A model generated the notes under the pieces. That model was not told the origin of the DNA, searched no databases, and was given only the letters and a program-made list of their open reading frames with translations. Positions 3 through 62,597 of a stretch of DNA of 64,000 bases are shown here, piece by piece. Position 1 is the first letter of the stretch. Each line of letters starts with the position of its first letter. The position numbers and the translations under genes were made by a program. The stretch comes from a virus: positions 1 through 64,000 of IMG/VR virus record IMGVR_UViG_3300037470_000672. One strand, given 5' to 3'.

Positions 3-419
3 GTCTCGGAATTCCAAAGATCCGAGCATCTTTTCAACCGGCTTGAAGTTGGGGAACGCCTTCCGAAGGTTCTCTGCCAAGTCTCGGAATTCCAAAGATC
101 CGAGCATCTTTTCAACGTGGTTGGCTTGCAAGAAGCCTGTGCGCAACAAGCGCACGAGGTCTCGGAATTCCAAAGATCCGAGCATCTTTTCAACATCCCG
201 ACGATCGCCGGCCTCTCGTCGCTCGCCTCCGAGTCTCGGAATTCCAAAGATCCGAGCATCTTTTCAACGCCGCGCTTGCTCTTCGGCGTGGGCCTTCCAC
301 TGTGTCAGCAGTCTCGGAATTCCAAAGATCCGAGCATCTTTTCAACGTGAGGTCATGCTGCCGGCCGATGCCGTGCCACTTCTGTCTCGGAATTCCAAAG
401 ATCCGAGCATCTTTTCAAC
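3..419 (-). CRISPR. CRISPR array, 6 identical 36-bp repeats and 5 complete spacers (42, 42, 38, 42, 37 nt); probably continues left of the window
   Basis: GTCTCGGAATTCCAAAGATCCGAGCATCTTTTCAAC at 3, 81, 159, 233, 311 and 384. Hairpin CTCGGA/TCCGAG. AT-rich leader-like sequence follows at 420-460. Minus orientation is inferred from the Cas12m-type layout (hairpin followed by AC at the 3' end) and from the cas12-adjacent array. Confidence 0.97.
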
Positions 420-599
420 AGTGTCACCGTAAGTATCTGTTTTTATTTACTCCTTTGCCCTGGTTGCGAGAACCTCGCTTTTGTCTAGTCCAGAACCCAG
501 CGTAGTCACCAGCCTACCCGGGGAAACACAGATCTTTCCACGCCTTTCTCGATGCGAGCGCCTTCCTCGTAGCGACACAGCGCCGAGGCGCTCGCGATT

Positions 600-674
600 T
601 GGTACTGGTGGCAGGATTTGAACCTACGTACGCCCCTTTATGAGAGAGGTGCTAAGCCGCTCAGCTACACCAGC
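600..674 (-). tRNA. tRNA with CAT anticodon (elongator Met or Ile2)
   Basis: Cloverleaf; anticodon arm CCTCT-CTCATAA-AGGGG; T loop TTCAAAT; encoded CCA. Confidence 0.9.
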
Positions 675-677
675 ATG

Positions 678-753
678 TGGTGCCCCGGGCAGGTCTCGAC
701 CCTGCAACCTCCGGCTCTTCAAACCAGCGCTCTTCCACCTGAGCTACCGGGGC
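678..753 (-). tRNA. tRNA-Phe(GAA)
   Basis: Acceptor GCCCCGG/CCGGGGC; loop TTGAAGA; encoded CCA. Confidence 0.92.
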
Positions 754-754
754 A

Positions 755-831
755 TGGAGGACCCGCCGGGACTCTCACCCGGTTGATCCCGATTTGCAGT
801 CGGGAGCCTCGACACCTTCGACCTCGGGTCC
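755..831 (-). tRNA. tRNA-Cys(GCA)
   Basis: Acceptor GGACCCG/CGGGTCC; arm CCCGA-CTGCAAA-TCGGG; U73 then CCA. Confidence 0.88.
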
Positions 832-873
832 TGGCAGCCCCACCAGGCCATGATCCTGGAACCTCCGCCTTCA

Positions 874-909
874 GTCTCGGAATTTCAAGGATCCGAGCAT
901 CCTTTCTTC
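874..909 (-). CRISPR. Solitary CRISPR repeat inside the tRNA operon
   Basis: GTCTCGGAATTTCAAGGATCCGAGCATCCTTTCTTC; first 33 nt match the cas12-adjacent repeat. Confidence 0.9.
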
Positions 910-913
910 TAGT

Positions 914-929
914 CCGCCCGTACGGGCGG
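914..929. repeat. Dispersed palindrome CCGCCCGTACGGGCGG, copy 1
   Basis: Perfect 16-bp palindrome, 4 nt from the solitary repeat. Confidence 0.95.
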
Positions 930-994
930 GTTCAACGAGCACCTGAAGTCGTTGTTGTCGACGCTAGCTATCACCTCCGTTTGCGAAAGATTGC

Positions 995-1082
995 TGGTGT
1001 AGCGGGAGGGACTCGAACCCCCAACCACGAAGGGCCTGCCGGGTTACAGCCGGTGACGTCTGCCAATCGACGCTTCCGCTAC
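995..1082 (-). tRNA. tRNA-Tyr(GTA)
   Basis: Acceptor GTAGCGG/CCGCTAC; loop CTGTAAC; long variable arm; CCA. Confidence 0.92.
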
Positions 1083-1086
1083 ATGC

Positions 1087-1160
1087 TGGCGGCGGGAGAG
1101 GGAGTCGAACCCTCACGCCCGGAACCAAAACCCGGGGTCCTACCGTTAGACGATCCCGCT
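1087..1160 (-). tRNA. tRNA-Gln(TTG)
   Basis: Loop TTTTGGT in a CCGG/CCGG stem; T loop TTCGACT; CCA. Confidence 0.9.
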
Positions 1161-1178
1161 ACATCACGCCGGGGTCAT

Positions 1179-1256
1179 TGGCAGGGGAAGCTGGGAGTCG
1201 AACCCGGAACCTACGGGTTTGGAGGCCGTCGCTCTAGCCAGTTGAGCTACTCCCCT
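1179..1256 (-). tRNA. tRNA-Trp(CCA)
   Basis: Acceptor begins AGGGGAG; loop CTCCAAA; G73 then CCA. Confidence 0.92.
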
Positions 1257-1367
1257 TCAGCCCTGCGGATGTCGCGTTTGGCTGAAGGGGCGTCAGTAGT
1301 GCTGAAACTCCTGACACATGCTCGCCGAGGAACGGATCGGGCGCACGCGAGGCGGATGCATTCCTGA

Positions 1368-1940
1368 TCATGCGGCGAGGCGCACCTCCGGTCGCTTGGT
1401 CGCCGCGTAGTGTTTCCACGCGGCCGGCCATCGCTCGGAAAGCACGAGACCGCGAGTTGCGAGGACGCCACGGAGCCCAGGAGGCTCCCAGGATTGGCCG
1501 GGGAGCTTGACGCGTGTCTGCATCTGCCAGCAGGTGCTCTCGGTGGCGCCGCTGCCGATTGGCAGGTTCGCGGCATACGAGGATGCGTAGCGCATCTTGT
1601 TGCGTCGTCGACGGATGTAGCTGATGGCAGCGGCGACGGCACTGCGCGCCCTGTCGTCGCTGCGTGCGATCTTCTTCGCCATCCGCCTCAGCTTCCGCAG
1701 GATGTTGTCGATGCCGTTGTCCTCCTTCAGCAGCGTCACGCGGTACCAGCCTTTCCAGTCCTGGGGGTCGCCCGGTGGCTCGCAGGCATCGACCACGTCT
1801 TCGAGGTAGCCGACGAGATGCTCGAAGTCGACGAACTCGCACACCTTCATCTCGCTTGGCAGCACGCGGCGAAGGGCTGCCGGCAGCGCCGACAGCTCCG
1901 GCGCCGCGTCTTGAATGCAGTGCAGCGGGATGCTGGTCAT
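1368..1940 (-). pseudogene. C-terminal fragment of an ISKra4/UPF0236-like DDE transposase
   Basis: Motifs VDFEHLVGYL, YIRRRRNKMRY and LPIGSGATES; the N-terminal half is missing. Confidence 0.75.
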
Positions 1941-2014
1941 GGTGCTCTCGTTGGGATAGGGGTCTGTGGTTCTTCGGATGAGGGTACACACAGGTTGTGT
2001 GGGGGTCAACAGAT

Positions 2015-2696
2015 CTACCGAAGCCAGTCAAGATCTCCCCGCAGGTACTCCTTGAGCCGATGCTTCTTCCCCGTACGCTCGCAGGTCACTACCCCGTCCT
2101 GTGTGCGCACAGTTCTGCACTTGTCACCTCGTTGGCCCGTTCCAACCTGAGTCTTGCGCGTGATTCCACGAGCCTGCGCTGCTTCCTGCTGAGCCCGCTG
2201 CTGGAGCTTCGCCGCGAGTGCGGCCAAGGCGTAAGCGCGGTTCTGGTGTTGGCTACGTTCGCTCTCTGAGCGCGTGACGATGCCGGTGGGGAGGTGAGTA
2301 GCCCGCACCGCGGAGTCGGTCTTGTTACGGTGCTGTCCGCCCGCACCGGTCGATCGGTACGTGTCGATCTGGATGTCCCGCATGTTGAGCTGGACTTCCG
2401 GCTTCTCCGGCTCTGGCAGGACGGCGACGGTCACGGTTGAGGTGTGAACCCGGCCGCGTTTTTCGGTGGGAGGGATCCTTTGCCACCTATGGCCGCCTGG
2501 TTCGGTTTCGGCGAGCTGGCGAGCGCCTTTGCCCACAATGCGGAGGGCCACGAAACCCGGGTGCTGTTCTAGGAGAGCGACCTCAAAGCCCCCTCCGCCC
2601 CGCGTAGCGAAGGTAGATGTCCATCTGGTCCTCGACGAGGAGTTTGGCATCATCGCCGCCTTCTGCGGCACGGATTTCTAGGATCACGGCTTCCAT
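2015..2696 (-). CDS. Class I peptide chain release factor homologue (RF1-type PxT motif, GGQ), about 226 aa, needing a +1 frameshift at 2583-2588
   Basis: Frame 1: SD AGGAGG then MEAVILEIRAAEGGDDAKL...YAGRRGL-stop. The +1 frame continues EVALLEQ...HRWQRIPPTEKRGRVHTS...GAGGQHRNKTDSAVR. Confidence 0.9.
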
Positions 2697-2727
2697 GATC
2701 GGCCTCCTGTTGATCAGCATAGCAAGC

Positions 2728-2803
2728 TGGTGCGCCGAGCAGGACTCAAACCTGCGGCCTCTCGTTCCGGAGACGAGCGCTCTGTTCGCTGAGTTACCGG
2801 CGC
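2728..2803 (-). tRNA. tRNA-Arg(CCG)
   Basis: Arm CTCGT-CTCCGGA-ACGAG; acceptor GCGCCGG/TCGGCGC; CCA. Confidence 0.9.
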
Positions 2804-2856
2804 ACGGTGCGCGTTCGCGCGTGCTCAGCGGCGATGGTGTCGTCTTCCATTCCTTA

Positions 2857-3297
2857 CTACTTGTGATCTTTACGACACACACGCTTGGTTTTATTTCTCG
2901 CTCTCCATGCCCTGCGGTACACCCTACTATGTTCGTTCCACGCATTCTTGCAAGGCTCGCATCTACACTTGTGATGCGAGTACCTAGTAAGGGTACCATG
3001 GACAGAGGTCGGACCTGGGTGCGACTTTCTAAGGTTATCCGCTGGTGACAGTATTTGCAGATTTTCTATGTCGTCATTGGTGAAATCGCCGTCGATGTGG
3101 TCTACGTGCTCTTCCTGTCCAAGAAGTCGTCCAAGGTGGACTGACATAAGGTACCTTGCCAAGCTCATAGACCCTCGGTGAGAGTAATCTTTCTTTACGA
3201 GGTGAACGTACCTCCTTTCATTCTTATGGACTGTAGGGCCGTAGACTGTATAACCTTCAAAAGGTGGAGGGGCTGATCTCCCTTTTCTCTCTACCAT
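2857..3297 (-). CDS. HNH endonuclease with C-terminal HGT-x-Y-x-CRC-xx-C motif
   Basis: HVDHIDGDFTNDDIENLQIL HNH motif; HGTLTRYSHHKCRCEPC. Confidence 0.85.
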   Translation of the reverse strand: MVERKGRSAPPPFEGYTVYGPTVHKNERRYVHLVKKDYSHRGSMSLARYLMSVHLGRLLGQEEHVDHIDGDFTNDDIENLQILSPADNLRKSHPGPTSVHGTLTRYSHHKCRCEPCKNAWNEHSRVYRRAWRARNKTKRVCRKDHK

Positions 3298-3342
3298 CTA
3301 AAATCCCATTTAAGATGTCCAAGAGTTTACTCTCACGTTCGG

Positions 3343-3419
3343 TGGGGCCGGTGAAGGTGCTCGAAACCCCATCATGTCCGCTTACAAGGCGGATCGTCTG
3401 CCTCTTGACGTACACCGGC
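3343..3419 (-). tRNA. tRNA-Thr(TGT)
   Basis: Arm TCCGC-CTTGTAA-GCGGA; acceptor GCCGGTG/CACCGGC; CCA. Confidence 0.85.
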
Positions 3420-3439
3420 GCGTTGTCCTCTCTTCCTTC

Positions 3440-3515
3440 TGGATCCTACGACCAGGATCGAACCGGCGACCTCCGCGATACCAGCACGGTGCTCTGCCAT
3501 CTGAGCTACGCAGGC
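3440..3515 (-). tRNA. tRNA-Thr(GGT)
   Basis: Loop CTGGTAT; D arm GCTC/GAGC; T loop TTCGATC; U73 then CCA. Confidence 0.88.
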
Positions 3516-4093: not shown

Positions 4094-4158
4094 TCAACCG
4101 TTTGTGGTATGGATGCTGTTCCTGTCTAGCTTCGAGCCTTCTTTCCTTTTCAAGTATA

Positions 4159-4234
4159 TGGTGGACTCGATCGGGGTCGAACCGATGACCTTCACCTTGC
4201 AAGGGTGTTGCTCTCCCGACTGAGCTACGAGCCC
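4159..4234 (-). tRNA. tRNA-Ala(TGC)
   Basis: Loop CTTGCAA; acceptor GGGCTCG/CGAGTCC with G3:U70; CCA. Confidence 0.93.
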
Positions 4235-4235
4235 A

Positions 4236-4763: not shown

Positions 4764-5069
4764 TCAGGCCGCACCCTCAGCCGATCGGGGAAACGGAACG
4801 ACCTTCCCGGTGTCCTCTTGCTCTTCCTGCTCCGCTTCTTCGACTGCTGCACGCACATCAGCTTGCTTGAGCGCGGTCGTTGTCACCTTGCGAAGCTTCT
4901 CGTTCTGCTCCTCTCCCTCACAAATTGCTTTGTCGAGGTCGTCGAGAGCTGACATGGCCATGCGGTAACTCTTCGACGCGCCATCCTCAAACCCGCTGTC
5001 CCCTTTGCCGTTCGGTTCTGTGACTTCCTGGTGGAGAGAGGGGGACTTCGGCCGAAAGAGTTTGAACAT
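4764..5069 (-). CDS. Hypothetical protein, 101 aa
   Basis: ORF with upstream GGAG SD; charged, coiled-coil-like composition. Confidence 0.65.
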   Translation of the reverse strand: MFKLFRPKSPSLHQEVTEPNGKGDSGFEDGASKSYRMAMSALDDLDKAICEGEEQNEKLRKVTTTALKQADVRAAVEEAEQEEQEDTGKVVPFPRSAEGAA

Positions 5070-8755: not shown

Positions 8756-9883
8756 ATCCCCTCCGTTACTTGTAGGGTTTCCTGGTGACGTCCCAGATCT
8801 CTGCGCCCGAGAACCCCCGCTTGGTCAGCTCCGCGCGAAGAAGCGCCTCTGTTTCCTCTTTAGAAGAGCCCTCAACGGTCACGTCCCCGCTCGTATCGGG
8901 ACGGAACCGATCTCCGTCCAGGACGGTCGCGCCGATCCAGCAGGAGAAGCCCGGCAGACAGACGCGGCCGGCGTCGTGAACCTCACCTCTGGGCTCCCTC
9001 GTCATCCGGTACTTGTTGGCCATCACCCCTCCTGGTCGGGCAGAACCCACCCGGTAGTGGAATCGGAGAACCGAACACCGTGGTCGAACGAGACCTCGGT
9101 GAAGGTGATCTTCACCCTCCGCCCCTTGGGCGTGTCGAACGCCTGCCGCCCGAAGATGGGCGTGTCCTTGCGTCCCGTCTTTTCCACCTTGACGTAGAGG
9201 AACGCCCCGAACCGGGAACCAATGGCAGCGTTGACGCCCTTGCAGACGGGGCTCTTGCTCATGGCGCTCCTAGAAACACGGATCCCGATAGGCGCTCCGG
9301 CGGCCGAGCCACAGGCGATAGCCGTGGCGCATCGGACAGCCCTTCTCATGGTAACGCCCGTTCTTGCGGAGGGTGAAGGTCATCTTCCGGCCGTTGGGGT
9401 AGACCATGAAGATGTAGCGCTGGGACTCGCTGATCCCATTCTTGTCGGTGCGAATGGCGCGGTCCTCCTGAACCACGACCTCGCGACCGTTCCGCCGAAC
9501 CTCCACCACCGTCACGGGGAGGTGATCGGTCCAACAACAAACCGAGCCGGCGTCACCGACTGACGGTGCCAGCGGATCGGCAACGATCTCACTCGCAGTC
9601 ATGACACGGCCCGTTCTTCGGGGAGCAGATGAAACCACCGACCGGGCAGCGGTAGTAGCAGTAGGCGTCGTCCCGGGCGTAACTGCTGTGCCCGCCGCTG
9701 GCCACTGTGGCCAGGGCAGCGTCTGCGCCACGCCAGAGGACACGCCCCACGGTCTTCTGCTGCGTCTCGCCCGACTTCTTGCGCACCGTAACGGTGCGAC
9801 CCTCGACCGCCTCGTCGAGGGAAAGGCGTAGACCCCAATCACCGGTTTTGAGCTTCGTCCAGGTAGCCATGTCTCCTCCTTTT

Positions 9884-33870: not shown

Positions 33871-33906
33871 GTCTCGGAATTTCAAAGATCCGAGCATCCG
33901 TTCACC
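33871..33906 (-). CRISPR. Solitary CRISPR repeat
   Basis: GTCTCGGAATTTCAAAGATCCGAGCATCCGTTCACC, 40 nt past the stop of 33947-34174. Confidence 0.9.
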
Positions 33907-34345: not shown

Positions 34346-34381
34346 GTCTCGGAATTTCAAGGACCTGAGCATCCACTCAAG
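34346..34381 (-). CRISPR. Solitary degenerate CRISPR repeat in a gene junction
   Basis: GTCTCGGAATTTCAAGGACCTGAGCATCCACTCAAG; overlaps the stop of 34377-34739 and lies 22 nt upstream of the ATG at 34323. Confidence 0.85.
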
Positions 34382-34899: not shown

Positions 34900-35328
34900 T
34901 CATCGAGCCTCGGTCCAAAACTCCCGAGGACTGATCTGCAAAGCCCTAGCTACCGCCTCCAGCGTTGACACCCGGGTATCGTTTTCTGATGCGTTCAGCA
35001 TCCGATAGAGGCTGCTCCGAGACACCCCCGACCGCTGAGCAAGCGTATCGTAGGTCAAACCGAGCCGGCTCATTCGCTTTTTGACGACCTCGGTGAGACA
35101 AAATTGAAAGGCCACAGCCGATATTTTTTGAACCGGTTGTGCTCGCTTACGGGTGTACAGGCGCTTGCGCCGTTGAATAAGGGCCAAGCTCAGGCGCTTC
35201 ATCCCCCCTTCCGTGAACTCCACATCAACTTGACCCGAGGACGGATGAACAGCCCGGACGATGCCGGGCTGTTTGTCGGAGAGGGTCTCCACCTGGGAGC
35301 CTTCTTTGATGGGCCGGTAGCGGGGCAT
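34900..35328 (-). CDS. XRE-family HTH transcriptional regulator with an N-terminal extra domain
   Basis: RMSRLGLTYDTLAQRSGVSRSSLYRMLN...RVSTLEAVARALQI. Confidence 0.85.
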   Translation of the reverse strand: MPRYRPIKEGSQVETLSDKQPGIVRAVHPSSGQVDVEFTEGGMKRLSLALIQRRKRLYTRKRAQPVQKISAVAFQFCLTEVVKKRMSRLGLTYDTLAQRSGVSRSSLYRMLNASENDTRVSTLEAVARALQISPREFWTEAR

Positions 35329-35342
35329 GCTCTCTTGTCTCG

Positions 35343-35378
35343 GTCTCGGAATTTCAAAGATCCGAGCATCTTTTCAAG
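35343..35378 (-). CRISPR. Solitary CRISPR repeat in the 5' UTR of the XRE gene
   Basis: GTCTCGGAATTTCAAAGATCCGAGCATCTTTTCAAG; 14 nt from the ATG at 35328. Confidence 0.92.
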
Positions 35379-35571: not shown

Positions 35572-35919
35572 TCATGCGCCGTCTCCGGCGTCTTTGCGGA
35601 TCCAATCCTCCGCAGCCTCCAGCCCGTCGATTGCATCCTTGATGTCCCGATCTTGAATGAAGCGCATCACCTGCTCTTCACCATCTCGCTGCCGCACCCT
35701 GCCGACCGAGACAGAGTACATGCGGCCGTTCTGCCCCTCCGCCGTCTGTACCTGGGTACGAACGTGACCGAAGTCGAAGTTGGTGGCGTTTTGCCACTCC
35801 AAACGGGGGCGCGGTGTACGCGCGGCGTACCCACCCTGCGACCGATCGCTGTACCCCTCCTGTGAGGGGTTCCCGTTGTACGACAGATTACTGTTTTGAC
35901 GGTGGTTCCTCTTGCCCAT
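35572..35919 (-). CDS. Hypothetical protein, 115 aa
   Basis: ORF behind a TTGACA-16-TATAGT promoter at 35957-35984. Confidence 0.65.
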   Translation of the reverse strand: MGKRNHRQNSNLSYNGNPSQEGYSDRSQGGYAARTPRPRLEWQNATNFDFGHVRTQVQTAEGQNGRMYSVSVGRVRQRDGEEQVMRFIQDRDIKDAIDGLEAAEDWIRKDAGDGA

Positions 35920-40097: not shown

Positions 40098-40133
40098 GTC
40101 TCGGAATTTCAAGGATCCGAGCATCCTTTCAAC
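40098..40133 (-). CRISPR. Solitary CRISPR repeat downstream of the second tRNA cluster
   Basis: Identical to the cas12-adjacent repeat, GTCTCGGAATTTCAAGGATCCGAGCATCCTTTCAAC. Confidence 0.95.
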
Positions 40134-40204: not shown

Positions 40205-40289
40205 TGGCAGCGGGCAGCGGAATCGAACCACGACGCCTAAGCGCCCTCCAGTTTTCAAGACTGGTCGCTCCCCATGAGCAGTACCCGCT
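40205..40289 (-). tRNA. tRNA-Ser(TGA)
   Basis: Arm CCAGT-CTTGAAA-ACTGG; long variable arm; G73 then CCA. Confidence 0.88.
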
Positions 40290-40297
40290 TCATGTAG

Positions 40298-40389
40298 TGG
40301 TGGCCCGAGCGAGAGTCGAACTCGCATGCCCCTCACAAGGCACCAGGGTCTGAGCCTGGCGTGTCTACCGGAAATTCCACCATCGGGCC
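40298..40389 (-). tRNA. tRNA-Leu(CAG)
   Basis: Arm CCAGG-CTCAGAC-CCTGG; long variable arm; CCA. Confidence 0.9.
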
Positions 40390-40393
40390 ATTG

Positions 40394-40466
40394 TGCGGAC
40401 GGCAGGAGTCGAACCTGCACTGACCGGGATTTGACGCCGGACCCTCTGCCGTTGGGGTACGTCCGC
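40394..40466 (-). tRNA. Atypical tRNA, most likely anticodon CAA (Leu), with a short variable loop
   Basis: Acceptor GCGGACG/CGTCCGC; T arm GCAGG-TTCGACT-CCTGC; anticodon arm CCGGC-GTCAAAT-CCCGG with a C:C pair; no encoded CCA. Confidence 0.7.
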
Positions 40467-42137: not shown

Positions 42138-42173
42138 GTCTCGGAATTTCAAAGATCCGAGCATCTTTTCAAC
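42138..42173 (-). CRISPR. Solitary CRISPR repeat
   Basis: GTCTCGGAATTTCAAAGATCCGAGCATCTTTTCAAC; about 34 nt of unique sequence and then an A9 run follow on the minus strand. Confidence 0.95.
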
Positions 42174-42178: not shown

Positions 42179-42201
42179 CAATCCGCCCGTACGGGCGGAT
42201 C
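42179..42201. repeat. Dispersed palindrome, copy 5
   Basis: CAATCCGCCCGTACGGGCGGATC, 5 nt from the repeat. Confidence 0.95.
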
Positions 42202-43467: not shown

Positions 43468-43503
43468 GTCTCGGAATTTCAAGGATCCGAGCATCCATTT
43501 AAC
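43468..43503 (-). CRISPR. CRISPR repeat downstream of the type IV-B operon; possible decayed partner at 43559-43586
   Basis: GTCTCGGAATTTCAAGGATCCGAGCATCCATTTAAC; 55 nt away is GTCTCGGcgAATTTttGGATCCGAcacc. Confidence 0.9.
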
Positions 43504-46313: not shown

Positions 46314-46319
46314 CGATCC

Positions 46320-51598: not shown

Positions 51599-53974
51599 CT
51601 ACAGAATCTCGCACTGCCCGCCCGCGCAGGCCACCGTCCCCTGGATGTGGTCGTTCGTGTCGTCCTCCACCGCCATCTGCGCGTAGTCGACGTCGACGAA
51701 CTCCCGCTTGAGATCTTCCCAGAGCTTGATGTTGTTCACGTGCTTGAGGCAGCGCGTCATCTTGCGCACGTCCCCCTCGAAGTGGCGCTCGGCGAACTGG
51801 TTTGCCCGTCGGATCCAGTCCTTCTTCAACCGCATCCGTTCGACCCTGGCGCCGATCTCGTCGGCCTGCTGCGCAAGCTCCACTGCGGCTGAGATTTCCT
51901 TCGTCAACGTAGACGCACCACGGCTTTGGAGAAGGCGCTCCACCTTCTCCTCAGCCCGCTCTGCACTGGTCCTGGCGATGTCGTAGGCCACCTCCAGCTT
52001 GGTGTCTTCCAGGGTTTTTAGCCCCAGCGCGTGCTCGCAGGCGTCCCAGAGATTTCCGTCGTAGGCGTGCTGGCCATCTACGATGAGCCCAGATGCCATG
52101 ATGGCGCCGTTCCCGTATTCAGCCACAACCTCTTCTACCATCGGGACGGCGACGAAGGGGGCCTGGGGGTAGTCCAAGTCCCCTGACGCAGGAAGAAGGG
52201 ATACTCCGGCCAAGTGGAGACGGTTTTCGTAGATGAACCGGCCGACCTTCTCCCATTCCCCCTCACCCACTTCGACCGTGTTGGAAACGTTGTGGGAGAG
52301 CCATGGTTGGGTGCAGCGTGAGGGCACTTTACCGGCGTCCACCCAATGCTTCTTGGTGCTCAGCACCCGTTCGAGCAGCCCGATAGCGCCCACCTGGGCC
52401 TTGGTCAGCGCGTCTTTGCCGGGCTCGATGAGGAAGGTGATGACCTCGGTCTTGCCGTTGGGGTCCCAAACGGACTTCTCACAAGCACGCAGGTTGTGCA
52501 TCTTGAAAAGCTGGTAGGCCGGCTCGTTGATGTTGGCCTGCACCCGACGAAGGACGCGGCGGGCGTGGTGTCCGTGGATCCCGGAAGCGGACTTGAGGAC
52601 ACAACTCCCCGTACCTTCCGGCTTGAGACAGGTAGCACGCGCAGTCAGATTTACGCCCAGTTTGGGAGCAAGCTCCTTGTTCACCGCCAGGACGAGCTTA
52701 GCCATCTCCTCTTGGAGCGCGGGGTCGAAAGCGACGTCCGGGCTGTCCATCATCCCCGTCATGGAGACACCCAGAAGCGCCTCACGACGGGTGATACGCT
52801 CGGACACCGGTCCCAGGTAGGCGAAGTCCGTGTAGCCGGCCTGTAGGGTTCCGATGATAGCGGCGGCTCGCGTAGCCCGACGGAACGTTTCATCATCGTA
52901 AATGCGCGCCATGTTCAGAGTCGACAAATTGCACATTTGCCACCCGGATTCTCCGGTTTCGGAGCATACGGGCCACATACCGATCTCCAAACATGGGTTG
53001 TAGACGATCTCTGTATCATCGCCGAAAACAAACCCCGGCTCACCCCACTCTCTTGCCAGGTTCAAGACACGCTGGAAATCCCCCCATTGGGTTTTTTCAC
53101 GAAGTAGTAACACGCTGTTGTTGCTGCGGCCTCGCTGCGGGTTCTTGTGCATCCAATCGCCGATCTTTGCTGTCATCATCTCCTGGTCTTCGGGGGAGAA
53201 TAGTGAAATCGAGGCCGACCTCCTAACTCCACCTGATAGAACCGCATCAGACTCGTGCATCACGATGTCGTAGGCGTGGATGGGCCGAAGCTGGTCCCCC
53301 TCTGCGCAGGCGCGCTCAAGGATGTCACGCGCCTTCTCCAGCGCGCGTTTGAGCGGTTCGGGGCCGGGTGCTTTACACCCGGAGGATCGAATAAGCGCCC
53401 CCTCAGGGCGGATGAGAGAAAAATCGAACTCGATATACCTGCCGCGGTACTGCGGAAAGTCGACCCTCCCACCAATGAAGTAACTCGACAGTAGAGCGCC
53501 GAAAGCGTCGGCCCACCCCTCGATGGAGTCGTCGATGGTGTGGATGACGGAACTGCCGTTCCCTTTGGGAGGGGCGATCTGAGGGAGCTTGGCGACGTGG
53601 TGCTGCTGGACAGAAAAACCCACCCCGCACCCACACAGAAGCAAAAAGACCGCCTCCTGGAAGAACCGGGGGCGGTCGCAGTAGGACGTGCAGCAGTTGT
53701 ACAGCTTGAGGTTGTGGCGCTCGATACAGTCCCCTCCGTACTGGAGCGCGCGTTGACTACCTAACACAAGCCCGTCAAGGAAAGCAGCCTCAGCAAAGTC
53801 AATCTCGTCGTCCACCCCCATACCCGCGTACTTCTTGCGGTGCATGTCGAACATGCGCTTGCCGGCTTCGGGTAGCGTTTCTCGGCGGTGCTGTTCGGGG
53901 ATGGTTCGGGCGTACTTGGAAGTGAAGACGTAGCTGCTCAAAGCTTGCTGAGTCATGCTCTGTTCACCAGACAA
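51599..53974 (-). CDS. nrdJ: Class II (B12-dependent) ribonucleotide reductase, RTPR-like
   Basis: GCGVGFS, GGVRRSA, NPCLEI, CNLST, KPEGT and C-terminal ACAGGQCEI; no beta-subunit gene nearby. Confidence 0.9.
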   Translation of the reverse strand: MSGEQSMTQQALSSYVFTSKYARTIPEQHRRETLPEAGKRMFDMHRKKYAGMGVDDEIDFAEAAFLDGLVLGSQRALQYGGDCIERHNLKLYNCCTSYCDRPRFFQEAVFLLLCGCGVGFSVQQHHVAKLPQIAPPKGNGSSVIHTIDDSIEGWADAFGALLSSYFIGGRVDFPQYRGRYIEFDFSLIRPEGALIRSSGCKAPGPEPLKRALEKARDILERACAEGDQLRPIHAYDIVMHESDAVLSGGVRRSASISLFSPEDQEMMTAKIGDWMHKNPQRGRSNNSVLLLREKTQWGDFQRVLNLAREWGEPGFVFGDDTEIVYNPCLEIGMWPVCSETGESGWQMCNLSTLNMARIYDDETFRRATRAAAIIGTLQAGYTDFAYLGPVSERITRREALLGVSMTGMMDSPDVAFDPALQEEMAKLVLAVNKELAPKLGVNLTARATCLKPEGTGSCVLKSASGIHGHHARRVLRRVQANINEPAYQLFKMHNLRACEKSVWDPNGKTEVITFLIEPGKDALTKAQVGAIGLLERVLSTKKHWVDAGKVPSRCTQPWLSHNVSNTVEVGEGEWEKVGRFIYENRLHLAGVSLLPASGDLDYPQAPFVAVPMVEEVVAEYGNGAIMASGLIVDGQHAYDGNLWDACEHALGLKTLEDTKLEVAYDIARTSAERAEEKVERLLQSRGASTLTKEISAAVELAQQADEIGARVERMRLKKDWIRRANQFAERHFEGDVRKMTRCLKHVNNIKLWEDLKREFVDVDYAQMAVEDDTNDHIQGTVACAGGQCEIL

Positions 53975-54979: not shown

Positions 54980-55977
54980 TCACTTGGTCGTCGCTTCGAC
55001 GGGACGAAGAGGTTCCCCTGTGCGCAACCGATGGAAGAAGTACCGAAACATCTCCACCTGGAAAATGAACTGGAAGGTCAGGCCACAGACACTCGGCGGA
55101 TCGTCGGTGTGGAGCCGCATGACTTCGCGCTTCTCGTACCAGGCTTCGTAGAACGCATGCTCGTGGTCGAAGTGACGTGCGCGCACGCCGTCGACGAACT
55201 GCTTTTCCTTCTCCGCCCAAGAATCGAACTGGTCCTCCTCCAGAGCACGCTGTGCCTCCTCTGCAACCTCATCAAGGTAGCGGGTGATCAAAGCCGGCTG
55301 GAAATCTTCGATCCCTACCCGACCTGGAACCTTCTCTGCGATGTAGGTCAAGTCGTAGTCGTAACGCTGGCGAGGAAGAAGCTGCCGTTCGAGCCAAAGC
55401 ATCGCGTTGGCGTCGTTCGGCCTGAAAAAGACCTCCCCTGCGTCTCCGTAGGCCATCAGCATTCCGGGAGCGCGAAGGATCCTCATCCAGTAAGCCCAGT
55501 GGTGAGGACGTCCTTTGGGGCGTATGAAGAGCCACTGGTTCTCGTTCTCTTGCTTGACCTCGTGCTCAGCGAACACCCTCATCGCTAGCTTCCGGGCATC
55601 CTCACGAACGGACGGCAGGTAGGTAGCTCGACTCATTCGGACCCCCACAACGACGGATCGATCGGGGCGTCGTCCCCCTGGGTTTTGTCTGGCTTGATGC
55701 CCAGAACCGTTTGCTGGCGTTTACCGATGGCTTCGACAGCATCATGAGCAGGTGGATGCAATCCCATGCAGACAGCTTTGGCGTCTTCGTAGGCGTTGTT
55801 TACAGCACGTTCGACGTTCTCATTGGCGCGTCGAACCAGGGTGTCGGCGTCCTGTTGGATCTGAGTAAACAGCTCGACCACCTCATCGAAGACACAGTCG
55901 CGCATGCGGGCGCGAAGGGTTTTGGAGGTAGATTCAGCCTTGGTCAGCGCGGCTTCGACTCGTTCCTCGATCGTCAA
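54980..55977 (-). other. Two hypothetical ORFs (54980-55648, 55633-55977)
   Basis: Colinear ORFs downstream of the mini-array. Confidence 0.65.
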
Positions 55978-55988: not shown

Positions 55989-56172
55989 GTATCGGAATTC
56001 CATATATCCGAGCATCTTTTCATCCCCACGCACGCCTCGAACGCCCGTAGCTGCCCACTCGTGTCTCGGAATTTCAAGGATCCGAGCATCCTTTCAACCA
56101 GTCGAGCTACCGCACGGCGACGGTCGCGTCGCTCTTGTCTCGGAATTTCAAGGATCCGAGCATCCTTTCAAC
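55989..56172 (-). CRISPR. Mini-array of 3 repeats and 2 spacers of 38 nt directly downstream of the cas12 gene
   Basis: Repeats at 56137 and 56063 (identical) and at 55989 (degenerate, distal). The first repeat is 23 nt from the cas12 stop. Confidence 0.95.
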
Positions 56173-56195
56173 AGGATCCACCTAACCTACCGTAT

Positions 56196-57974
56196 TTACT
56201 CACCTCCATCAGCGCTTTGCAAGCGCCGCGCTTGCTGCTCTTCGAGCATCCCGCGAAATCGTTGCTGCCTTCGGGAAAGCACCTTCTTTCCACTGTCTTG
56301 ACCCTCGCGAGCGCCTTCCTCGACAGGCGTCACCGCCGGGGCTCTCGCGAGCAGGTTGTGCGCGGCGTTCTCGTCCTGATCCCACTCCGCGCCACACTGT
56401 TCACACGTGTAGCGGAGTTTGGCTGCCTGGTCCCAGGTGTTGCGGTGCTGACAGCAGTGACAATCCGTTGTCGTCCACTCGGCTGGTACCTCGGCAATAT
56501 CGGCACCTCGCCGGCCGCATGCGTTGTGGATGCGCTGGCGCAGGTCTGATACGCAGGCGACAAATCGCCCGTAGTTCTGCTTGCGCTGGTCGCGGGTGCC
56601 TTCTTCGGCATCGCCCCGCTTAGTCGCGTCACGCAGGTCAAACTTCTCCAGCACCACTCGCGAATAGGCGGTGCTGAGCGTGTTGGCGAACTGCCGGTAC
56701 ACCTCTCGTCGCTGGCGCAGAACCCGGCGCGACTCCTCAACCTCCCACTGCCCAAGGTGCAAGTCGTTGCGGCGCCACGCCTCCAGTCGCTCCACCAGGT
56801 CGGCAGGCATCTGGTCACGATGCTCGTCGTAGAGCCGCAGGACCCGTCGTGGGTTGCGCCAGAGATGGACGTGCGCGGGGTCTGCGCCCATCGCCTCGTG
56901 GTCGACTGTCTGGAGCCATGCGTGGATGCGGGGCTTGACCTCGTCGAATATCTTATCCCGCACAGCTCGGATGCTGTCTGCATGCTGGTCCTTGCGCAGC
57001 ATCATGGCGGGGAGCCGCAGCTCGCCCTCGCGGCCGAATTCGTCGACCCAGTAGGCGACGCGCAGACTGCCGTCGTCAAGTAGCCGCCAGCCGACGTCGA
57101 TCGCTACGGTGCCGTGGCCGCATGCGACCTTTTCAGGCTCGGCGTCGACGACGAACTGCACCTTCCACACGTATCGGGTCGCGCGCTTTTGGCGTAGCAA
57201 GTGGACCCACTTGATCCGTCCCGCGGGCAACGGCTGATGGTAGTCGATGGGGATGACGGCGAAGATCGGATCGCGGCCTTCGCTGCCGACGCGAAAGCGC
57301 ATCACGGTCTTCTGTAGCCGCCGGCGCCCCTTGCGCGAATCGGATTGGGCGGTCGGTCGTTCGATCCAGCAGCGCGTGTCGGGCTCGTGGATGAGCGCAG
57401 CATCCAGCCCGCCCTGAAGCTGGACCGCGAGATGTCCGTTACCGGTCCAGCGCTTGAAGTGCGGGTCCGCGATTGCTTTGCTGGCCTGTTCGACCGCCTG
57501 CTCCACGATGAGGTACGTGCCCCAGTACAGACCGGACGCAGCGCGGGCGCTTTTCACCTGGTCGGCGGCCGTCTTGTTGACGTCCGCTAGCGCCGTCTGA
57601 ACAACGGCGTCGTCCGCAATGAGTGCTTTAGCAACGCGAAGGTCGGCGCGAGCCGCCTTCAGGCGAGGCTTCAGCTCGCAGGCGCGGTCTCGCAACATCT
57701 GCGTCGCCAGCTTGGCAGCCGAGCGGGTTTGGCGACGTAGGAGGTTGATCTCCGCGCGCACGTTGTGCAGTTCATCGGCCAGTGTTTTGACCTCGCCTGC
57801 GAGCTTTTCGGTGTCGGGGTGACCTTCGAGCACTTCGCGCACCTTCTGGCGCCGCGCTCGCTCGATCTCGACAAGCGCGTTGTGATAACGATGCGCCAAG
57901 TGCATCTGATCACTGACCAGGTCAGCCATGTCAGTCGCTGTTTTAGCGCGGTACTCGTAAATACGGACTGTCAT
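56196..57974 (-). CDS. cas12m: Cas12m-like (type V-M/V-U1) compact effector, 592 aa
   Basis: LAHRYHNALVEIE, GLYWGTY, FKRWTGNGHLAVQLQ, RuvC-I VAIDVGWR, RuvC-II VVLEKFD, zinc finger CHCC..CEQC and RuvC-III WDQDENAA. These parallel MmCas12m motifs as I recall them. A cognate mini-array is adjacent. Confidence 0.85.
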   Translation of the reverse strand: MTVRIYEYRAKTATDMADLVSDQMHLAHRYHNALVEIERARRQKVREVLEGHPDTEKLAGEVKTLADELHNVRAEINLLRRQTRSAAKLATQMLRDRACELKPRLKAARADLRVAKALIADDAVVQTALADVNKTAADQVKSARAASGLYWGTYLIVEQAVEQASKAIADPHFKRWTGNGHLAVQLQGGLDAALIHEPDTRCWIERPTAQSDSRKGRRRLQKTVMRFRVGSEGRDPIFAVIPIDYHQPLPAGRIKWVHLLRQKRATRYVWKVQFVVDAEPEKVACGHGTVAIDVGWRLLDDGSLRVAYWVDEFGREGELRLPAMMLRKDQHADSIRAVRDKIFDEVKPRIHAWLQTVDHEAMGADPAHVHLWRNPRRVLRLYDEHRDQMPADLVERLEAWRRNDLHLGQWEVEESRRVLRQRREVYRQFANTLSTAYSRVVLEKFDLRDATKRGDAEEGTRDQRKQNYGRFVACVSDLRQRIHNACGRRGADIAEVPAEWTTTDCHCCQHRNTWDQAAKLRYTCEQCGAEWDQDENAAHNLLARAPAVTPVEEGAREGQDSGKKVLSRRQQRFRGMLEEQQARRLQSADGGE

Positions 57975-58024
57975 GATCTCTCTGTTTCCCTACCTAATAA
58001 AGTAGGTAGAATAAGCGCACCCTC

Positions 58025-60730
58025 TCACATGTTAAACAGCATGGTGCGCTGGACAACGCGAAAGCCGTATCCGGGTGCGATGACGATCTCTTTCGTCTCG
58101 GCGATAGGGTCGACGCGACGCGGATGGTCACAAGGAGCGACCTCGACGTGGTAGCCGTCGAGGCTTTTTCCAGGATCGTGCAAAAGAAACACCTTCCCCG
58201 CGTCAGGTGCCACACACGTCAGGTGGCCACACTTGGGACACGGGCCGTCGTTCTTGCTGTGATCATCGAGCGCTCGTCTCAACCGTCCAGTGATCTGCCC
58301 GCTACCCTTCTGCGTTCTACAAGGATGAAGGCAGAGCGATCCGTATGCCGCCATCACTGATGCGGCGTACATGCGGTCTTGCTCGCTGAGCTGGTCGGGC
58401 GCATAGCGCAGTCGCCACTGCACACCGTCTGGGTCGTCCGGGCGCGGCCAGGTGGTGGTGTCCGGCCCCCCGTCCAGGATGACGTAGGAGCCTCGGATCC
58501 GCGCGCTACCATAGGTCAAGACCGGGATGGAGTAGAGTTCCACCTCTCCTGGGTTTCCCCGCTCAACGGCGCAGTAGCAGGTGTCACAGATCCCGGGGAT
58601 GGCGTCATCGACGCCGTCGGCGCAGCCGTCTTCGTAGCAGACCTGCTTGCCGCAGCCAGGACAGACCCGGAGGTAACCCCAGCAGTAGTCTGGGACGGGA
58701 TGGTTGTGGGACTCACAGCCGGAGGGAAGGCGTAAGCGCATAGGCTCGGGAGGGCCGAGAGAGCTGGCGAAACCTTCTCGGATCCGCTGCGCCCTGATGC
58801 GTTCGCGGTCTTCTTTGGTGATCATCACTTATCCTCTGGTCGTCGGAACATCTCTCCCCATTTGATGGCGATGGATGGATCGTCGCGACCCCTAGATGCC
58901 TGGTGCATGTCAAGGATCCACTGGAGGAGGCTATCGGGCAGAAACGTTCCAGGCGGTGGTGTGTACTCCCAAGCGCCGTTTACTGGGTTGCGTGTAAGGT
59001 AACGACAGTTGACCAATTCGTTGAGTCGTTCCATCAACATGGCGTTGTGTTTGTGAGGCCCCCCGCTGCTGTGGTCGAACACATCTCCCTTCCATCCGCA
59101 CGCGATGTTGAGGAGGTCGGCGTGAAGCGTGACAGGGGCGCGTTCGTCGAGAGCAATCGAAACAAGCTGGTGCAGCTCGTTGGCTACAACGGCCACGGTC
59201 GGCGTGGTGTCCATGGGACCGGCTGTTGGGAGAACGAGCCGGCCTTCGGGTGTTCCTCTGCATAGCTGTGGCGCGATGAGGGGCATCAGGACGTCTCCGG
59301 CCAGACCGGCTCCGGCCAGATCAGCTTCTGCGCCACGTCGGTGTCAATCACTGCGTCCGCCTCATGCCAACGGCGCACCAACACGTCATCCGGGGTGTAG
59401 TAGCTGTCCTCGACTTCGTGAGCCTTGTCGATCTGTTGGAGCAGGTGCCGAAGCGCATGGACTTCCGTGGTTAGGTCTTTCGGATCGGGGGTGTCGGGCG
59501 CAGAAGTGCTGCGCTCGTTCGCAAGGATGAGCTTCTGAATCTTGGCGAAATCGGTATCGATGTCTTCGCGGTCGTCACCGAGCCGAACTCGCAGCAGCAA
59601 GATCATGTAACGCACATGCCCCAGCGTGGCTTCTGCGCGCTCGGCGCGTGCTCGCACCTCTGCCAGATCGCTCAGCAGCACGACCATTTGGTCGGGGTTA
59701 ACACACTCATTGCAGAGGATAACTTCCCCCTCTTTACCCGCTTCGACAAGAGTATTGTCCCCGCAGACGTCACAGGCACGTGTGATCATTCACTGCTCCC
59801 ACCGCCAGGATGTCTACCTTGGCGCGGCCCAACGGGTCCGGTTCCGTCTCCGAGTAGGTGAACACGGCGCCCGGGTACCCTTGACTGGTGATCCTTCCGG
59901 CCGCGTAGCTCTTGGCCTTCTGGACGTCTTCCTCCGTGCCGCAGTTCAGCCAGATGCAGGCTTTGGGCTGGACCTGCTCCACCAGGCGGGGATGGCGACC
60001 GAGGTCGGCGGCGAAAGCCTCGCCGTCCCAGACGCTAACCGTCTCGGTCCAGGCGACAACGATCACCATGACACGCGCTCCCGGCAAGCCCTACAGCTCG
60101 CCTCCTTCTTGCGGTCGCGATGGCGCCCGGCCTTGGCCGACCGTCGCATCATGGCGACGACCACCGGGTTACGGTCTTTCGGCTGCTTGCGCTTGGCCAT
60201 CTTGCACTCCTTCAGCGATCCTTCGCTGATCTGTTTCGCCTACCGTAAGACCTAGCTTTTGCCTTGTCAAGGGACAAGACCTTTGCCTGGTTCTTTTTTC
60301 GGTATTGGACCACTTCCCGCTCGGGCGGTGGTAGGCCCGTGAAGGGAACGATCGCAGGAAACCCAAACCGAGGTAGGTGCGTACAAAGCCGCTGCACCAG
60401 GATGGGGAGGCGCAAGTTCTCCGACTGCAAACCCTCAAGATCCGACATAAAAACCGTAGCTATCGGCTTGGGTAGCTCGACGGTCCAGTCCCAAAAGGCC
60501 AGCGTATGGAGACCGGAGATTTCACCCACCAGGGCTTGGCGCTCTGGGTACGCCACGTTCCGATACTCTGGCTTGGGTGGCAGCAGCTTCACCAGATGCG
60601 ATGGCGGAAAGCGCCGCTGATCTGATGGACCGCACGGCGTGAGCTGGCGGTTTTCACCTAGCTTCCAAAGCTGGTGGCGGTTGCCCTCGCGTAGAACGCC
60701 GAAGAAGTACGATTCGTGCTGCATTCTCAC
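58025..60730 (-). other. Hypothetical ORFs 58025-58828, 58825-59286, 59286-59789, 59770-60087, 60212-60730
   Basis: Chained overlaps on the minus strand. Confidence 0.65.
60213..60270 (-). promoter_or_regulatory. Sigma70-type promoter with hairpin leader
   Basis: TTGACA-17-TACGGT; CAGATCAGCGA-AGGA-TCGCTG-AAGGAG, identical to the ardC leader. Confidence 0.85.
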
Positions 60731-61284
60731 CGCATCTTGCTGCGAATGCGAGCCTGGCCCTCGGGCGTGGAGAGGTCAATCGAGGGGACTTTGAGCTTGT
60801 CTGCTACCCGCCAGGCGTGATTGGTCCCGCCCCTTTGATGGTCTATCAGGTTGCGCGCAGCCAAGAGCTGGTTCGCCCCCTGCACTACTCCGACATTGCG
60901 GATGAGGAGAAGCCGAGCACCATCTGAGCATTTTTCGGGATGGGGGTGACACGAGCGCGCCAGCTCCGCCCACTGGAGAAACTCCTGGTTGCCAGGCTGT
61001 TCCCAGCTCCCGCCCGGTAGCTGGTCGTCATCGAAGTGACAGATCAGATGGTTGTCAGGATGCAGAGATTTCGTGTTGTAATCAGGCCAGGGCAGGTAGA
61101 CGTGCACCAAGGTCGGGTCGACCCGATTGGCGCCGCGAGCAAACGCCTGGTCAGGTCCAGCCGCGTTCCCGTGGGTCAGGATGAAGCCCTTGGCGACTAT
61201 GTAGGCGCCCACCTCTTCACAGAGCTGGAGAACTTCCCGGGAGGTACCTCTCCAACCAGCGCAGGCGATCTTAGGGTGGGCCAC
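60727..61284 (-). CDS. SLOG-superfamily (DprA/YspA-like) protein
   Basis: KIACAGWRG...LTHGNAAGPDQAFARGA...RGGTNHA. Confidence 0.8.
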   Translation of the reverse strand: MAHPKIACAGWRGTSREVLQLCEEVGAYIVAKGFILTHGNAAGPDQAFARGANRVDPTLVHVYLPWPDYNTKSLHPDNHLICHFDDDQLPGGSWEQPGNQEFLQWAELARSCHPHPEKCSDGARLLLIRNVGVVQGANQLLAARNLIDHQRGGTNHAWRVADKLKVPSIDLSTPEGQARIRSKMR

Positions 61285-61366
61285 ACACCTAACCTACACA
61301 TAACCGAAGAATGATCAAGTGGTGCTCGGGTTCACGTTGTGCCAGCCTGATTTCGCTTCCGCCCTC

Positions 61367-61428
61367 TTGACAATCCGTATAGCTGCGCGTAGAGTGATCT
61401 CATGTCAGGGACGGTTCCCTGAAGGAGG
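61367..61428 (+). promoter_or_regulatory. Sigma70-type promoter with hairpin leader, the only plus-strand member of the family
   Basis: TTGACA-17-TAGAGT; CAGGGA-CGGT-TCCCTG-AAGGAGG. Confidence 0.85.
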
Positions 61429-61435
61429 TTCCACG

Positions 61436-61567
61436 ATGATGATGCTGAAAGCCGAGGGACGCCGCCTGTACTTCGAGGGAGCGCCCTTCGCCGCGAAGGA
61501 TAGGATCAAGGCGCTCGGCGCCGCGTCTATTGTTTACGACGCTCATTCAGAGTACCCTAGCGGCTGA
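61436..61567 (+). pseudogene. Apparently truncated ORF, 43 aa
   Basis: LYFEGAPFAAKDRIKALGA resembles the repeated domain of 19892-21175, but the sequence breaks off before the usual Trp motifs. Confidence 0.5.
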
Positions 61568-61606
61568 GAGCCGCCGCCACCCAACGCCCCCGCGGGGGCA
61601 GAGGAG

Positions 61607-62423
61607 ATGATGATGACGTCACCGACCGAACGGCCCTCCTCACCGAGAAGATCGTCCCCGCGGGGCATCGAGGTGGTCGAGGTGACTGTGTGCGGCTCGT
61701 CGCTGACCTACACCTACTATATCGACGCGGCGGGCGTCCATCACCCCGCGACTCTCGCGGGGACGCCGTGGGCGCTGGACGGGCGCCCCATCCCCGAGCC
61801 CGACGACGTCGGGTGGCGCGCAGAGATCGGGCACCGACTGCCCGACGCCGAGCACGGCGTCGAGTGGGGCGCGGATGTCGTGGTCGACGACGACGACGAC
61901 TGACACCGTCTCCCTCGCCCGGCGCCGAGGGACTCCGACTGCGCAGCGCCGGTGCCCCGCGAGGGGCAGGCCCCCGAGGTCGCCGCCTGCACGCGGTGGG
62001 GGCCGCACGCTCCGATGACGGGCGCAGCGATAGCGGACGCGGCGCGTGCGCAGAGTGTGGGCGGTTTGCATCTTTGGAGGACTGCTCAGACAGTAGCGGA
62101 CTCGTCGCAGGATGCTGCTCGCGCTGCGCCTCGATGTCACCCTACGCGCGGTCCTTCGCGTGATGCCTAGCCGGCCCGTCGCCTTCGAATTCGAGATACG
62201 CACCACCGAGGGCGTAACGTGGTGCCATGTGCAGGGTTCGGGTGGGCGCGTCGGTGACGGCGCGCTCTATATCACGGACACGACCACCCTCGCGTACGTG
62301 GAGCAAAGACTACTGGCTCGTGTGCGCCTCTTGGCCGAGCGGGGACCGTTATACATCGATGGGCAAGACGTGTGTGTACAGGAAGTCTGCGCGGTTCGTA
62401 TTCGGTATTCGCCTATCTCGTAG
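61607..62423 (+). other. Two hypothetical plus-strand ORFs (61607-61903, 62112-62423)
   Basis: GAGGAG SD before 61607; same strand as the 61367 promoter. Confidence 0.5.
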
Positions 62424-62521
62424 GTGCCCGGCTCTTTCATTTCCGAGACGTACCCTCAATCCGCCCGTACGGGCGGATCGGGGTTGAAGAGAGGGTGCTC
62501 AGATCCTTGGAATTCCAAGAC
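62415..62521 (+). CRISPR. Two decayed repeats in the opposite (plus) orientation, with a palindrome-containing spacer between them
   Basis: About 62415-62449 ...GGTGCCCGGCTCTTTCATTTCCGAGAC and 62483/62486-62521 GTTGAAgagAGGGTGCTCAGATCCTTGGAATTCCAAGAC. Confidence 0.65.
62457..62479. repeat. Dispersed palindrome, copy 6
   Basis: CAATCCGCCCGTACGGGCGGATC. Confidence 0.95.
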
Positions 62522-62561
62522 CGACGCGCTGTCAGCAACACCAACCCGAGCCGTCTTAGGT

Positions 62562-62597
62562 GTCTCGGAATTTCAAGGATCCGAGCATCCTTTCCGG
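62562..62597 (-). CRISPR. Solitary CRISPR repeat facing the plus-strand repeat across 40 nt
   Basis: GTCTCGGAATTTCAAGGATCCGAGCATCCTTTCCGG. Confidence 0.92.

Follow-up and report, generated by a model that had tools for sequence, protein, structure and literature searches.

The characterised type V-M CRISPR systems, those built on MmCas12m2, GoCas12m and MsCas12m, are bacterial or plasmid-borne and share a simple layout: an effector of about 600 amino acids, an adjacent, ordinary array of 36-nt repeats, and no adaptation genes. Each repeat provides a pseudoknot scaffold that can do without its first 7 nt (PMC10442227, PMC11013384), and in the solved complex of Cas12m2 with its CRISPR RNA (crRNA) this pseudoknot-plus-stem scaffold is ordered and nucleotides -36 to -30 are disordered (PMC10442227). 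Cas12m cuts its precursor crRNA (pre-crRNA) within the repeat and silences by binding, and variants with a D-E-D RuvC triad also fail to cut DNA (PMC11013384). The subtype is encoded by some prophages as well (review PMC11656645). Described here is a type V-M system in a large soil phage, IMG/VR record IMGVR_UViG_3300037470_000672 (175,906 bp; G000 below), whose first 64 kb form the window under analysis. It has the homologous effector, the adjacent array and the 36-nt repeats of its characterised counterparts, and adds to them about 19 single repeats scattered across 176 kb outside the arrays.

Single repeats that keep an effector-binding structure have been described in phages as host-repeat mimics, the RNA anti-CRISPRs or Racrs (Camara-Wilpert 2023, PMC10651486; review PMC11656645). 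Racrs are few, are made as small RNAs and inhibit host Cas proteins, whereas the units considered here match the phage's own effector, number about 20 and lie inside messenger RNAs (mRNAs). The core of the repeat had no match in 185,579 GTDB species genomes, in IMG/VR or in the metagenomes of the Joint Genome Institute (JGI), an absence that is no proof that the host has none. No unit of G000 would form a stand-alone RNA from its own promoter, though five units of another phage (G004, below) do have one.

Stand-alone repeats whose adjacent sequence serves as a guide outside immunity are familiar as crRNA-like RNAs and mini-arrays (Shmakov 2023, 10.1101/2023.03.03.530964; crlRNA, 10.1101/2024.12.27.630466). 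Such regulators lie within or next to cas loci and pair partially with cas or toxin promoters, whereas the distance between the phage units and cas12m ranges from 4.6 kb to more than 100 kb, none of them being within or beside the cas locus, and a blastn-short comparison of their guides with the whole record gave only chance-level complementarity to promoters or genes of the same genome. Other viruses carry mini-arrays directed against related viruses (PMC11656645), and a variant of one Cas12m phage discussed below has likewise gained a kin-matching spacer. Virus-borne mini-arrays use acquired spacers and host Cas proteins, whereas the phage units would use their own neighbouring sequence as spacer and a phage-encoded effector. 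A further possible parallel is TnpB, the ancestor of Cas12, whose omega-RNA takes as its guide the DNA flanking the end of the scaffold gene and so matches the 'empty' allele; TnpB cuts DNA and serves transposon retention, whereas the phage units have neither transposase nor transposon ends and published Cas12m proteins do not cut.

The effector itself, labelled Cas12m-like in a preliminary description of this DNA, is confirmed as a Cas12m by its matches to solved proteins. The cas12m gene (56196-57974, minus strand) encodes 592 amino acids, within the range of about 550-620 typical of type V-M effectors, and matches PDB entry 23vw_A ('CRISPR-associated DNA-binding protein Cas12m') over residues 18-544 with E=2e-80. 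A second match, 8pm4_A (E=3e-23), was deposited as 'Transposase' and is presumably the Cas12m of Mycolicibacterium mucogenicum. Alignment to solved Cas12m gives the C-terminal RuvC residues as D-E-D, and the protein ends in a Cas12f1-like_TNB zinc ribbon (Pfam PF07282, 1.3e-10). A search for Cas1 (PF01867) found no match in the 176-kb record and did match 7 control genomes, as expected of a type V-M locus with no adaptation module; Cas2 and Cas4 were not searched for as families.

Two arrays accompany the effector, with spacers 3' of a 36-bp repeat that reads GTTGAAAAGATGCTCGGATCTTTGGAATTCCGAGAC on the minus (crRNA) strand and offers a 3' pseudoknot or stem scaffold. The first, array A (3-419, minus strand), has six exact repeats and five spacers of 37-42 nt and runs off the start of the window; its leader occupies roughly 420-480 and includes a TAAATA box at about 440-470, like that of the second. 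Array B (55989-56172, minus strand) begins 23 nt past the cas12m stop codon on the same strand and consists of three repeats of the variant GTTGAAAGGATGCTCGGATCCTTGAAATTCCGAGAC separated by two 38-nt spacers. Its last repeat is degenerate and ends 11 nt ahead of the start codon of the next gene (55633-55977). A promoter-like leader of array B, TTGCAA and TAAATA separated by 18 nt (approximately 56193-56222, minus strand), can be read in the sequence, overlapping the end of cas12m. Rfam holds no family for the repeat.

Across the whole record the repeat occurs 31 times, and 19 of these copies are solitary. Dinucleotide shuffles gave 0 matches where 11-18 were found, and a reversed-pattern control gave 0. 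Both arrays and all eight solitary positions reported earlier for the window stand as given, as does their placement on the dominant gene strand, though this last point weighs little by itself because 219 of 226 gene calls (crude codon-model caller) are on the minus strand. The two decayed inverted copies that had also been reported fared differently: one, at 62486-62521 on the plus strand, is genuine, with 7 of 36 mismatches, and the other, near 62415, is weak, with more than 12 of 36 mismatches and only the 3' end shared. The genuine inverted copy lies in the sole plus-strand gene island, and every other copy of the record is on the minus strand, so each follows the local direction of transcription. 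The same phage was found in five separate JGI metagenome assemblies (samples 3300037515, 3300031965, 3300030620, 3300030606 and 3300054115; contigs L140-L144), at 99.995-100% identity over up to 21.5 kb. Four of the repeat copies are identical in all five independent assemblies, and the copies are therefore not artefacts of assembly, one of the outcomes that the preliminary description had named as refuting its proposal.

Evidence of selection on these copies comes from the way in which they have decayed. When each of the 19 solitary copies was compared with its nearest array variant, positions 1-7 showed 0.278 mismatches per site and positions 8-36 only 0.053, a fivefold difference (binomial p = 5e-11), which bears out the earlier impression that substitutions cluster in the 5' GTTGAA end. 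The variable positions 1-7 correspond to the disordered part, and the conserved positions 8-36 to the ordered scaffold, of the Cas12m2 crRNA (PMC10442227), and the flanks of the solitary copies are unrelated. The repeat can fold into two stems, 6-10/19-23 and 13-18/29-34, that are paired at 86% and 97.5%, respectively, across the copies. At pair 8:21, 10 copies have G-C, 5 have A-U and 4 have G-U, and there is one exception. It is the only pair that varies, and the overall covariation score among the G000 copies is not significant (48 of 500 shuffles), because the set of copies is too uniform. The nearest Cas12m system (48% identity) differs in the hairpin by a double compensatory swap, CTCGTC/GACGAG against CTCGGA/TCCGAG. 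Two copies beyond the window, 126270 and 127873, lie in frame inside open reading frames (ORFs) of the head module and are read in different frames, so selection there acts on the nucleotides and not on a peptide. Together these patterns support selection on the part of the solitary repeat that Cas12m is predicted to bind. The suggestion that the copies are selected for effector binding or processing is thus upheld as far as the scaffold is concerned, and its further proposal, that each is a one-guide unit or a processing site, is a possibility to which we return.

A similar arrangement recurs in other phages. A profile scan of IMG/VR found 63 viral loci encoding Cas12m relatives, on contigs of 14-202 kb, most of which have an array of 36-nt repeats just downstream of the cas12m gene. 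Solitary repeats far from the array were present in 8 of 13 non-redundant whole genomes and absent from the other five, and all reversed-pattern controls gave 0. Besides the 19 in G000, there are 6-7 in G001 (110 kb), 11 in G004 (202 kb), at least 8 in G011 (153 kb), and 1-2 in each of four others. The Cas12m phages concerned are unrelated, and their repeats differ; G000 and G004 have just three ORFs in common, and the layout therefore tracks Cas12m and not phage ancestry. The G004 copies supply the compensatory changes that the uniform G000 set does not, since its worn units keep their hairpin paired at 97.8%, against 89% in shuffles, with double changes at four pairs, and 0 of 500 shuffles reach the observed score. 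Five of the G004 units have the same -10 box as the array leader, at the same distance of 7-8 nt upstream, and point antisense into the 3' ends of neighbouring genes. The shared box and spacing lead us to read these five as dedicated guide genes. Three further G004 units, and one in G008, sit just ahead of start codons, at 11-15 nt in the G004 cases.

Cas12m phages also appear able to acquire spacers. A variant of a 36-kb Cas12m phage (L066, 11774-11811) has two extra leader-proximal spacers relative to its relatives, the first of which matches 98.5%-identical relatives at 34 of 34 nt (L051:17311-17344; also L053 and L087), with the 5' flank ..cacggcc. The arrays of these phages thus do gain spacers, and these can target kin or self. 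As a separate observation, G001 carries a two-repeat mini-array (35790-35888; L001, about 9750-9860) directly upstream of cas12m, with a textbook promoter of TTGACT, 17 nt and TATAAT, that resembles the autoregulatory mini-arrays of other CRISPR types.

The solitary units are insertions. The preliminary description had called for a comparison of repeat positions among related phages, and in phages whose major capsid proteins are 70-73% identical to that of G000 three syntenic junctions have no unit. At gp13 the junction measures 14 nt in one relative (L145) and 73 nt, including unit 120496, in G000. At the junction between the portal gene and the next gene, another relative (L147) has a promoter-like site where G000 carries unit 128577. 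The third case is a 514-residue protein whose homologue in L145 ends ..PFGRA*; in G000 the sequence runs ..PFG, continues in frame through unit 126270, and goes on for 54 more codons. Some joints are untidy. The last 6 nt of the repeat at 35343 (CGAGAC) are tandemly duplicated (window 35337-35378), as are the last 13 nt of a solitary repeat in G007 (about 4951-4999), and both duplications may be footprints of unit insertion. At 120496 the 5' half of the repeat is split.

Nearly all of the units sit at gene or operon boundaries. About nine stop 10-26 nt short of a start codon, with a Shine-Dalgarno sequence that begins 1-4 nt past the repeat, and at two units the TGA within the 5' end of the repeat is the stop codon of the upstream gene. 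The unit at 34346-34381 (this and the other units of this paragraph are on the minus strand unless stated otherwise) fills its gene junction in this manner, with the upstream stop codon in its 5' end and the next ATG 22 nt downstream after GGAGG; that at 35343-35378 lies 14 nt ahead of the ATG of a helix-turn-helix regulator gene (34900-35328). Six units are found at operon ends, where they either follow a hairpin or terminator directly or precede a promoter-like site by 46-82 nt, and two of the six (874 and 40098) are in transfer RNA (tRNA) operons. The unit at 33871-33906 follows a stop codon by 40 nt, and a promoter-like site (33824-33796) begins 46 nt downstream of it; for the unit at 43468-43503 the corresponding site (43385-43357) begins 82 nt downstream. 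The unit at 42138-42173 comes 9 nt after a hairpin (42183-42198), and a promoter-like TTGCTC-N17-TATACT lies 67 nt downstream. Within the tRNA operons, the unit at 874-909 comes 5 nt after a hairpin (914-929), and that at 40098-40133 is 71 nt past a cluster of three tRNA genes (40205-40466). The unit at 62562-62597 directly follows an intrinsic terminator (62633-62610 plus a T run) and faces the inverted copy (62486-62521, plus strand) across 40 bp. That copy in turn marks the end of the plus-strand gene island, shortly after a hairpin at 62461-62476. No unit of G000 has a promoter-like site directly upstream; all are embedded between co-oriented genes.

The facing pair at 62486-62597 stands where plus- and minus-strand transcription units converge. 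Their two guides would be reverse complements of each other, and an RNA made by read-through would contain both a repeat and an anti-repeat.

Several of the hairpins in question belong to one family. A perfect 22-bp palindrome, AATCCGCCCGTACGGGCGGATT, occurs 15 times in the record, mostly just after genes: in the window at 914 (core 914-929), 16450, 23847, 39046, 42183 and 62461, and at 9 further sites. It is probably a terminator or an RNA-stabilising hairpin that has no T run. Three of the 15 (914, 42183 and 62461) lie next to a unit, a number that does not clearly exceed chance. Both G000 (145787-145822) and G004 (174582-174617) have a solitary repeat just upstream of a recombinase gene of the RecA family (Pfam RecA, 6e-28 and 2e-6), which may be a coincidence since the two proteins are not similar by BLAST. 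This pair is what a comparison of the genes downstream of units in different phages yielded, and those genes have no common theme.

Taken together, we consider it probable (at roughly 0.85) that each solitary unit functions as a Cas12m handle within a phage transcript and puts the phage sequence beside it in the place of a guide. That Cas12m binds and cuts the units is deduced from the pattern of conservation and from published Cas12m biochemistry. Because nearly all genes are on one strand and promoters are few, transcription would cross each unit and yield an RNA with the Cas12m pseudoknot scaffold. The phage's Cas12m would bind this scaffold and cut at its loosely conserved 5' edge, as it does with pre-crRNA, and would then remain loaded, with the next 17-20 nt of phage sequence as its guide. 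In another phage type V system, a single repeat with 18 nt is sufficient for a working guide.

What the phage would gain from such complexes is a more tentative matter. The most likely pay-off, though somewhat short of an even bet, is that the self-derived guides place the non-cutting Cas12m on the same locus of co-infecting relatives that have no insertion there. The carrier's own copy would be exempt from its guide because the repeat sits where a protospacer-adjacent motif (PAM) would stand; if the phage's own mRNAs are cut or occluded at gene boundaries as well, this would be a by-product or an additional function. The use of guides against kin is favoured by the independent recurrence of the units in unrelated phages, by the G004 cassettes that have promoters of their own, by the fact that Cas12 is a single-turnover enzyme and by the kind of spacer gain seen in L066. 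Cas12m would also be expected to stay bound to the RNA that it cuts, in which case the roughly 19 mRNA units would absorb most of the protein, and a guide payload would fit better than a role as an RNase. A bolder and somewhat less likely extension is that a single repeat placed beside the phage's own sequence is a spacer-free means of making guides: each insertion would target every relative that is without it and at the same time remove the PAM of the carrier, and in mixed infections the units would spread by recombination, much like drive elements that do not cut.

Several observations weigh against guides of this kind. Four of the seven in-window units away from the arrays have as their guide non-coding DNA just upstream of a promoter, a poor target in relatives. 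The true spacers of the arrays matched nothing beyond chance in the 176-kb genome of the phage itself, in G001 or in GenBank phages. Nor have close relatives, in which empty sites might be seen, come to light at the loci where they were sought: the RecA-like gene of G000 has none in IMG/VR, its gp13-like gene has none among JGI contigs, and its 514-residue head protein is unique except for identical copies. Contigs reached through cluster members were the same phage, at 100% identity. The ribosome-binding site 1-4 nt past the repeat in about nine units, which falls within the first 10-14 guide positions, suits control in cis at least equally well.

Such control is the alternative that survives best, although we regard it as unlikely, perhaps a one-in-four matter. 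Cas12m would bind and cut the units in polycistronic RNAs, splitting them at gene boundaries and hiding the next ribosome-binding site, and the outcome would be a Cas12m-dependent regulon of about ten genes, much as with a coat-protein translational operator. All 19 units of G000 are indeed sense-oriented and have no promoters of their own, and the Shine-Dalgarno sequence that follows the repeat in about nine of them, 10-26 nt before a start codon, is in the seed position; the three G004 units and the one G008 unit ahead of start codons are similar. The hairpin upstream of several units would remain after cutting as a protective 3' end, and at the portal junction L147 has a promoter-like site in place of the G000 unit. 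That said, with short junctions taken into account the units are not significantly anchored to start codons and show no more than a trend (Fisher p = 0.165), the downstream genes share no theme, and a single-turnover processor such as Cas12m makes a poor RNase. The promoter-driven G004 units, antisense to gene 3' ends, do not fit this scheme, and units in tRNA operons or inside ORFs are unrelated to translation starts.

The possibility that the units are functionless, scattered by neutral or selfish recombination in a phage rich in recombination genes and tolerated at gene boundaries, is considerably less probable. The messy joints (the end duplication at 35343 and the split 5' half at 120496) and the absence of units from distant kin are what such spread would produce, and boundaries are the least harmful sites for 36-nt insertions. 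It does not account for decay that is strongly non-uniform and spares exactly the scaffold that Cas12m would bind, and for the same reason the copies are poorly described as neutrally decaying array debris, another outcome that the preliminary description had named as fatal to its proposal. The compensatory changes in G004, the independent recurrence in unrelated Cas12m phages and an orientation that always follows transcription point the same way, towards handles under selection.

The preliminary description itself had proposed a genome-wide RNA-guided regulatory network. Taken as control of the phage's own DNA, in which unit-derived guides bind second sites or their own locus and there form roadblocks against read-through between operons, this now looks improbable. 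It would suit the six operon-end units, which follow a terminator or hairpin or precede a promoter, and an effector that silences by binding (PMC11013384). In the search that had been proposed, the 40 nt after each solitary copy gave only chance-level second-site matches in G000, G001 and G004 (blastn-short), and short seed matches were indistinguishable from chance; a self-directed network in trans is therefore left with no support. At a unit's own locus the protospacer flank is the repeat end ..GAGAC, which would need to serve as a PAM, and the same flank spares the arrays from self-targeting. The least likely alternative, raised earlier as an RNA anti-CRISPR function, is that the units are Racr-like decoys that soak up the Cas12m of a host, of a rival phage or of the phage itself into complexes with useless guides; solitary repeat units are indeed known as RNA anti-CRISPRs in phages (PMC10651486) and conservation limited to the protein-binding part is what a decoy needs, but the absence of the repeat core from the databases searched leaves only the phage's own effector in view and no foreign cognate, decoys would disable the phage's own arrays, and the Racrs described so far consist of one or a few small RNAs with promoters rather than some 20 units embedded in mRNAs.

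We found no paper on solitary repeats that are spread genome-wide and cognate to the phage's own effector. In a preprint of September 2026 (10.64898/2026.09.14.751636), the Cas12m of a myxophage is put forward as the first from a bacteriophage, and the preprint's passages on Cas12m are silent on lone repeats. Cas12m genes are nevertheless common among phages, as the 63 loci in IMG/VR show. Lone phage repeats have been known only as a few host-repeat mimics that block host immunity, and here there are an own effector and tens of lone repeats that appear to be under selection. Should the units turn neighbouring phage sequence into guides, they would represent a new route to CRISPR specificity that bypasses Cas1-Cas2, and a new weapon between phages; if they behave as drive-like elements, they would amount to a second, acquisition-independent mode of CRISPR 'memory' in several unrelated lineages of Cas12m phages. 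If instead they mark mRNAs for Cas12m, the phage would give the first natural example in which a class 2 effector regulates a viral gene programme post-transcriptionally. Either reading would bear on Cas12m as a compact tool.

The phage that carries this system has a G+C content of about 60% and, outside the window, a T4-like module of head genes that includes portal, prohead protease, Gp23 and gp13. The recombination module of the record includes one RecB/Cas4-like exonuclease. The record begins and ends within array A, and at its far end (record 175767-175906) spacer 1 is fused to spacer 5, so an array-deletion variant is present in the population. The genome is either circularly permuted at about 176 kb or larger; CheckV puts the completeness of the record at 83%, and there is a 222-kb contig in another sample. 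The window has a class II ribonucleotide reductase-like gene (51599-53956) and 13-14 tRNA genes. Between the repeat at 874 and a tRNA-Phe gene lies a 120-nt stretch (754-873, minus strand) with a predicted fold of -51 kcal/mol, the 3' two-thirds of which are tRNA-like, having GCA (Cys) in the anticodon loop and an unusual T loop; neither ARAGORN nor Rfam made a call there. Beyond the window, the T4-type portal gene (record 128618-132745) has 1375 codons and includes an intein with an HNH endonuclease, as judged from PHROG and Pfam matches.

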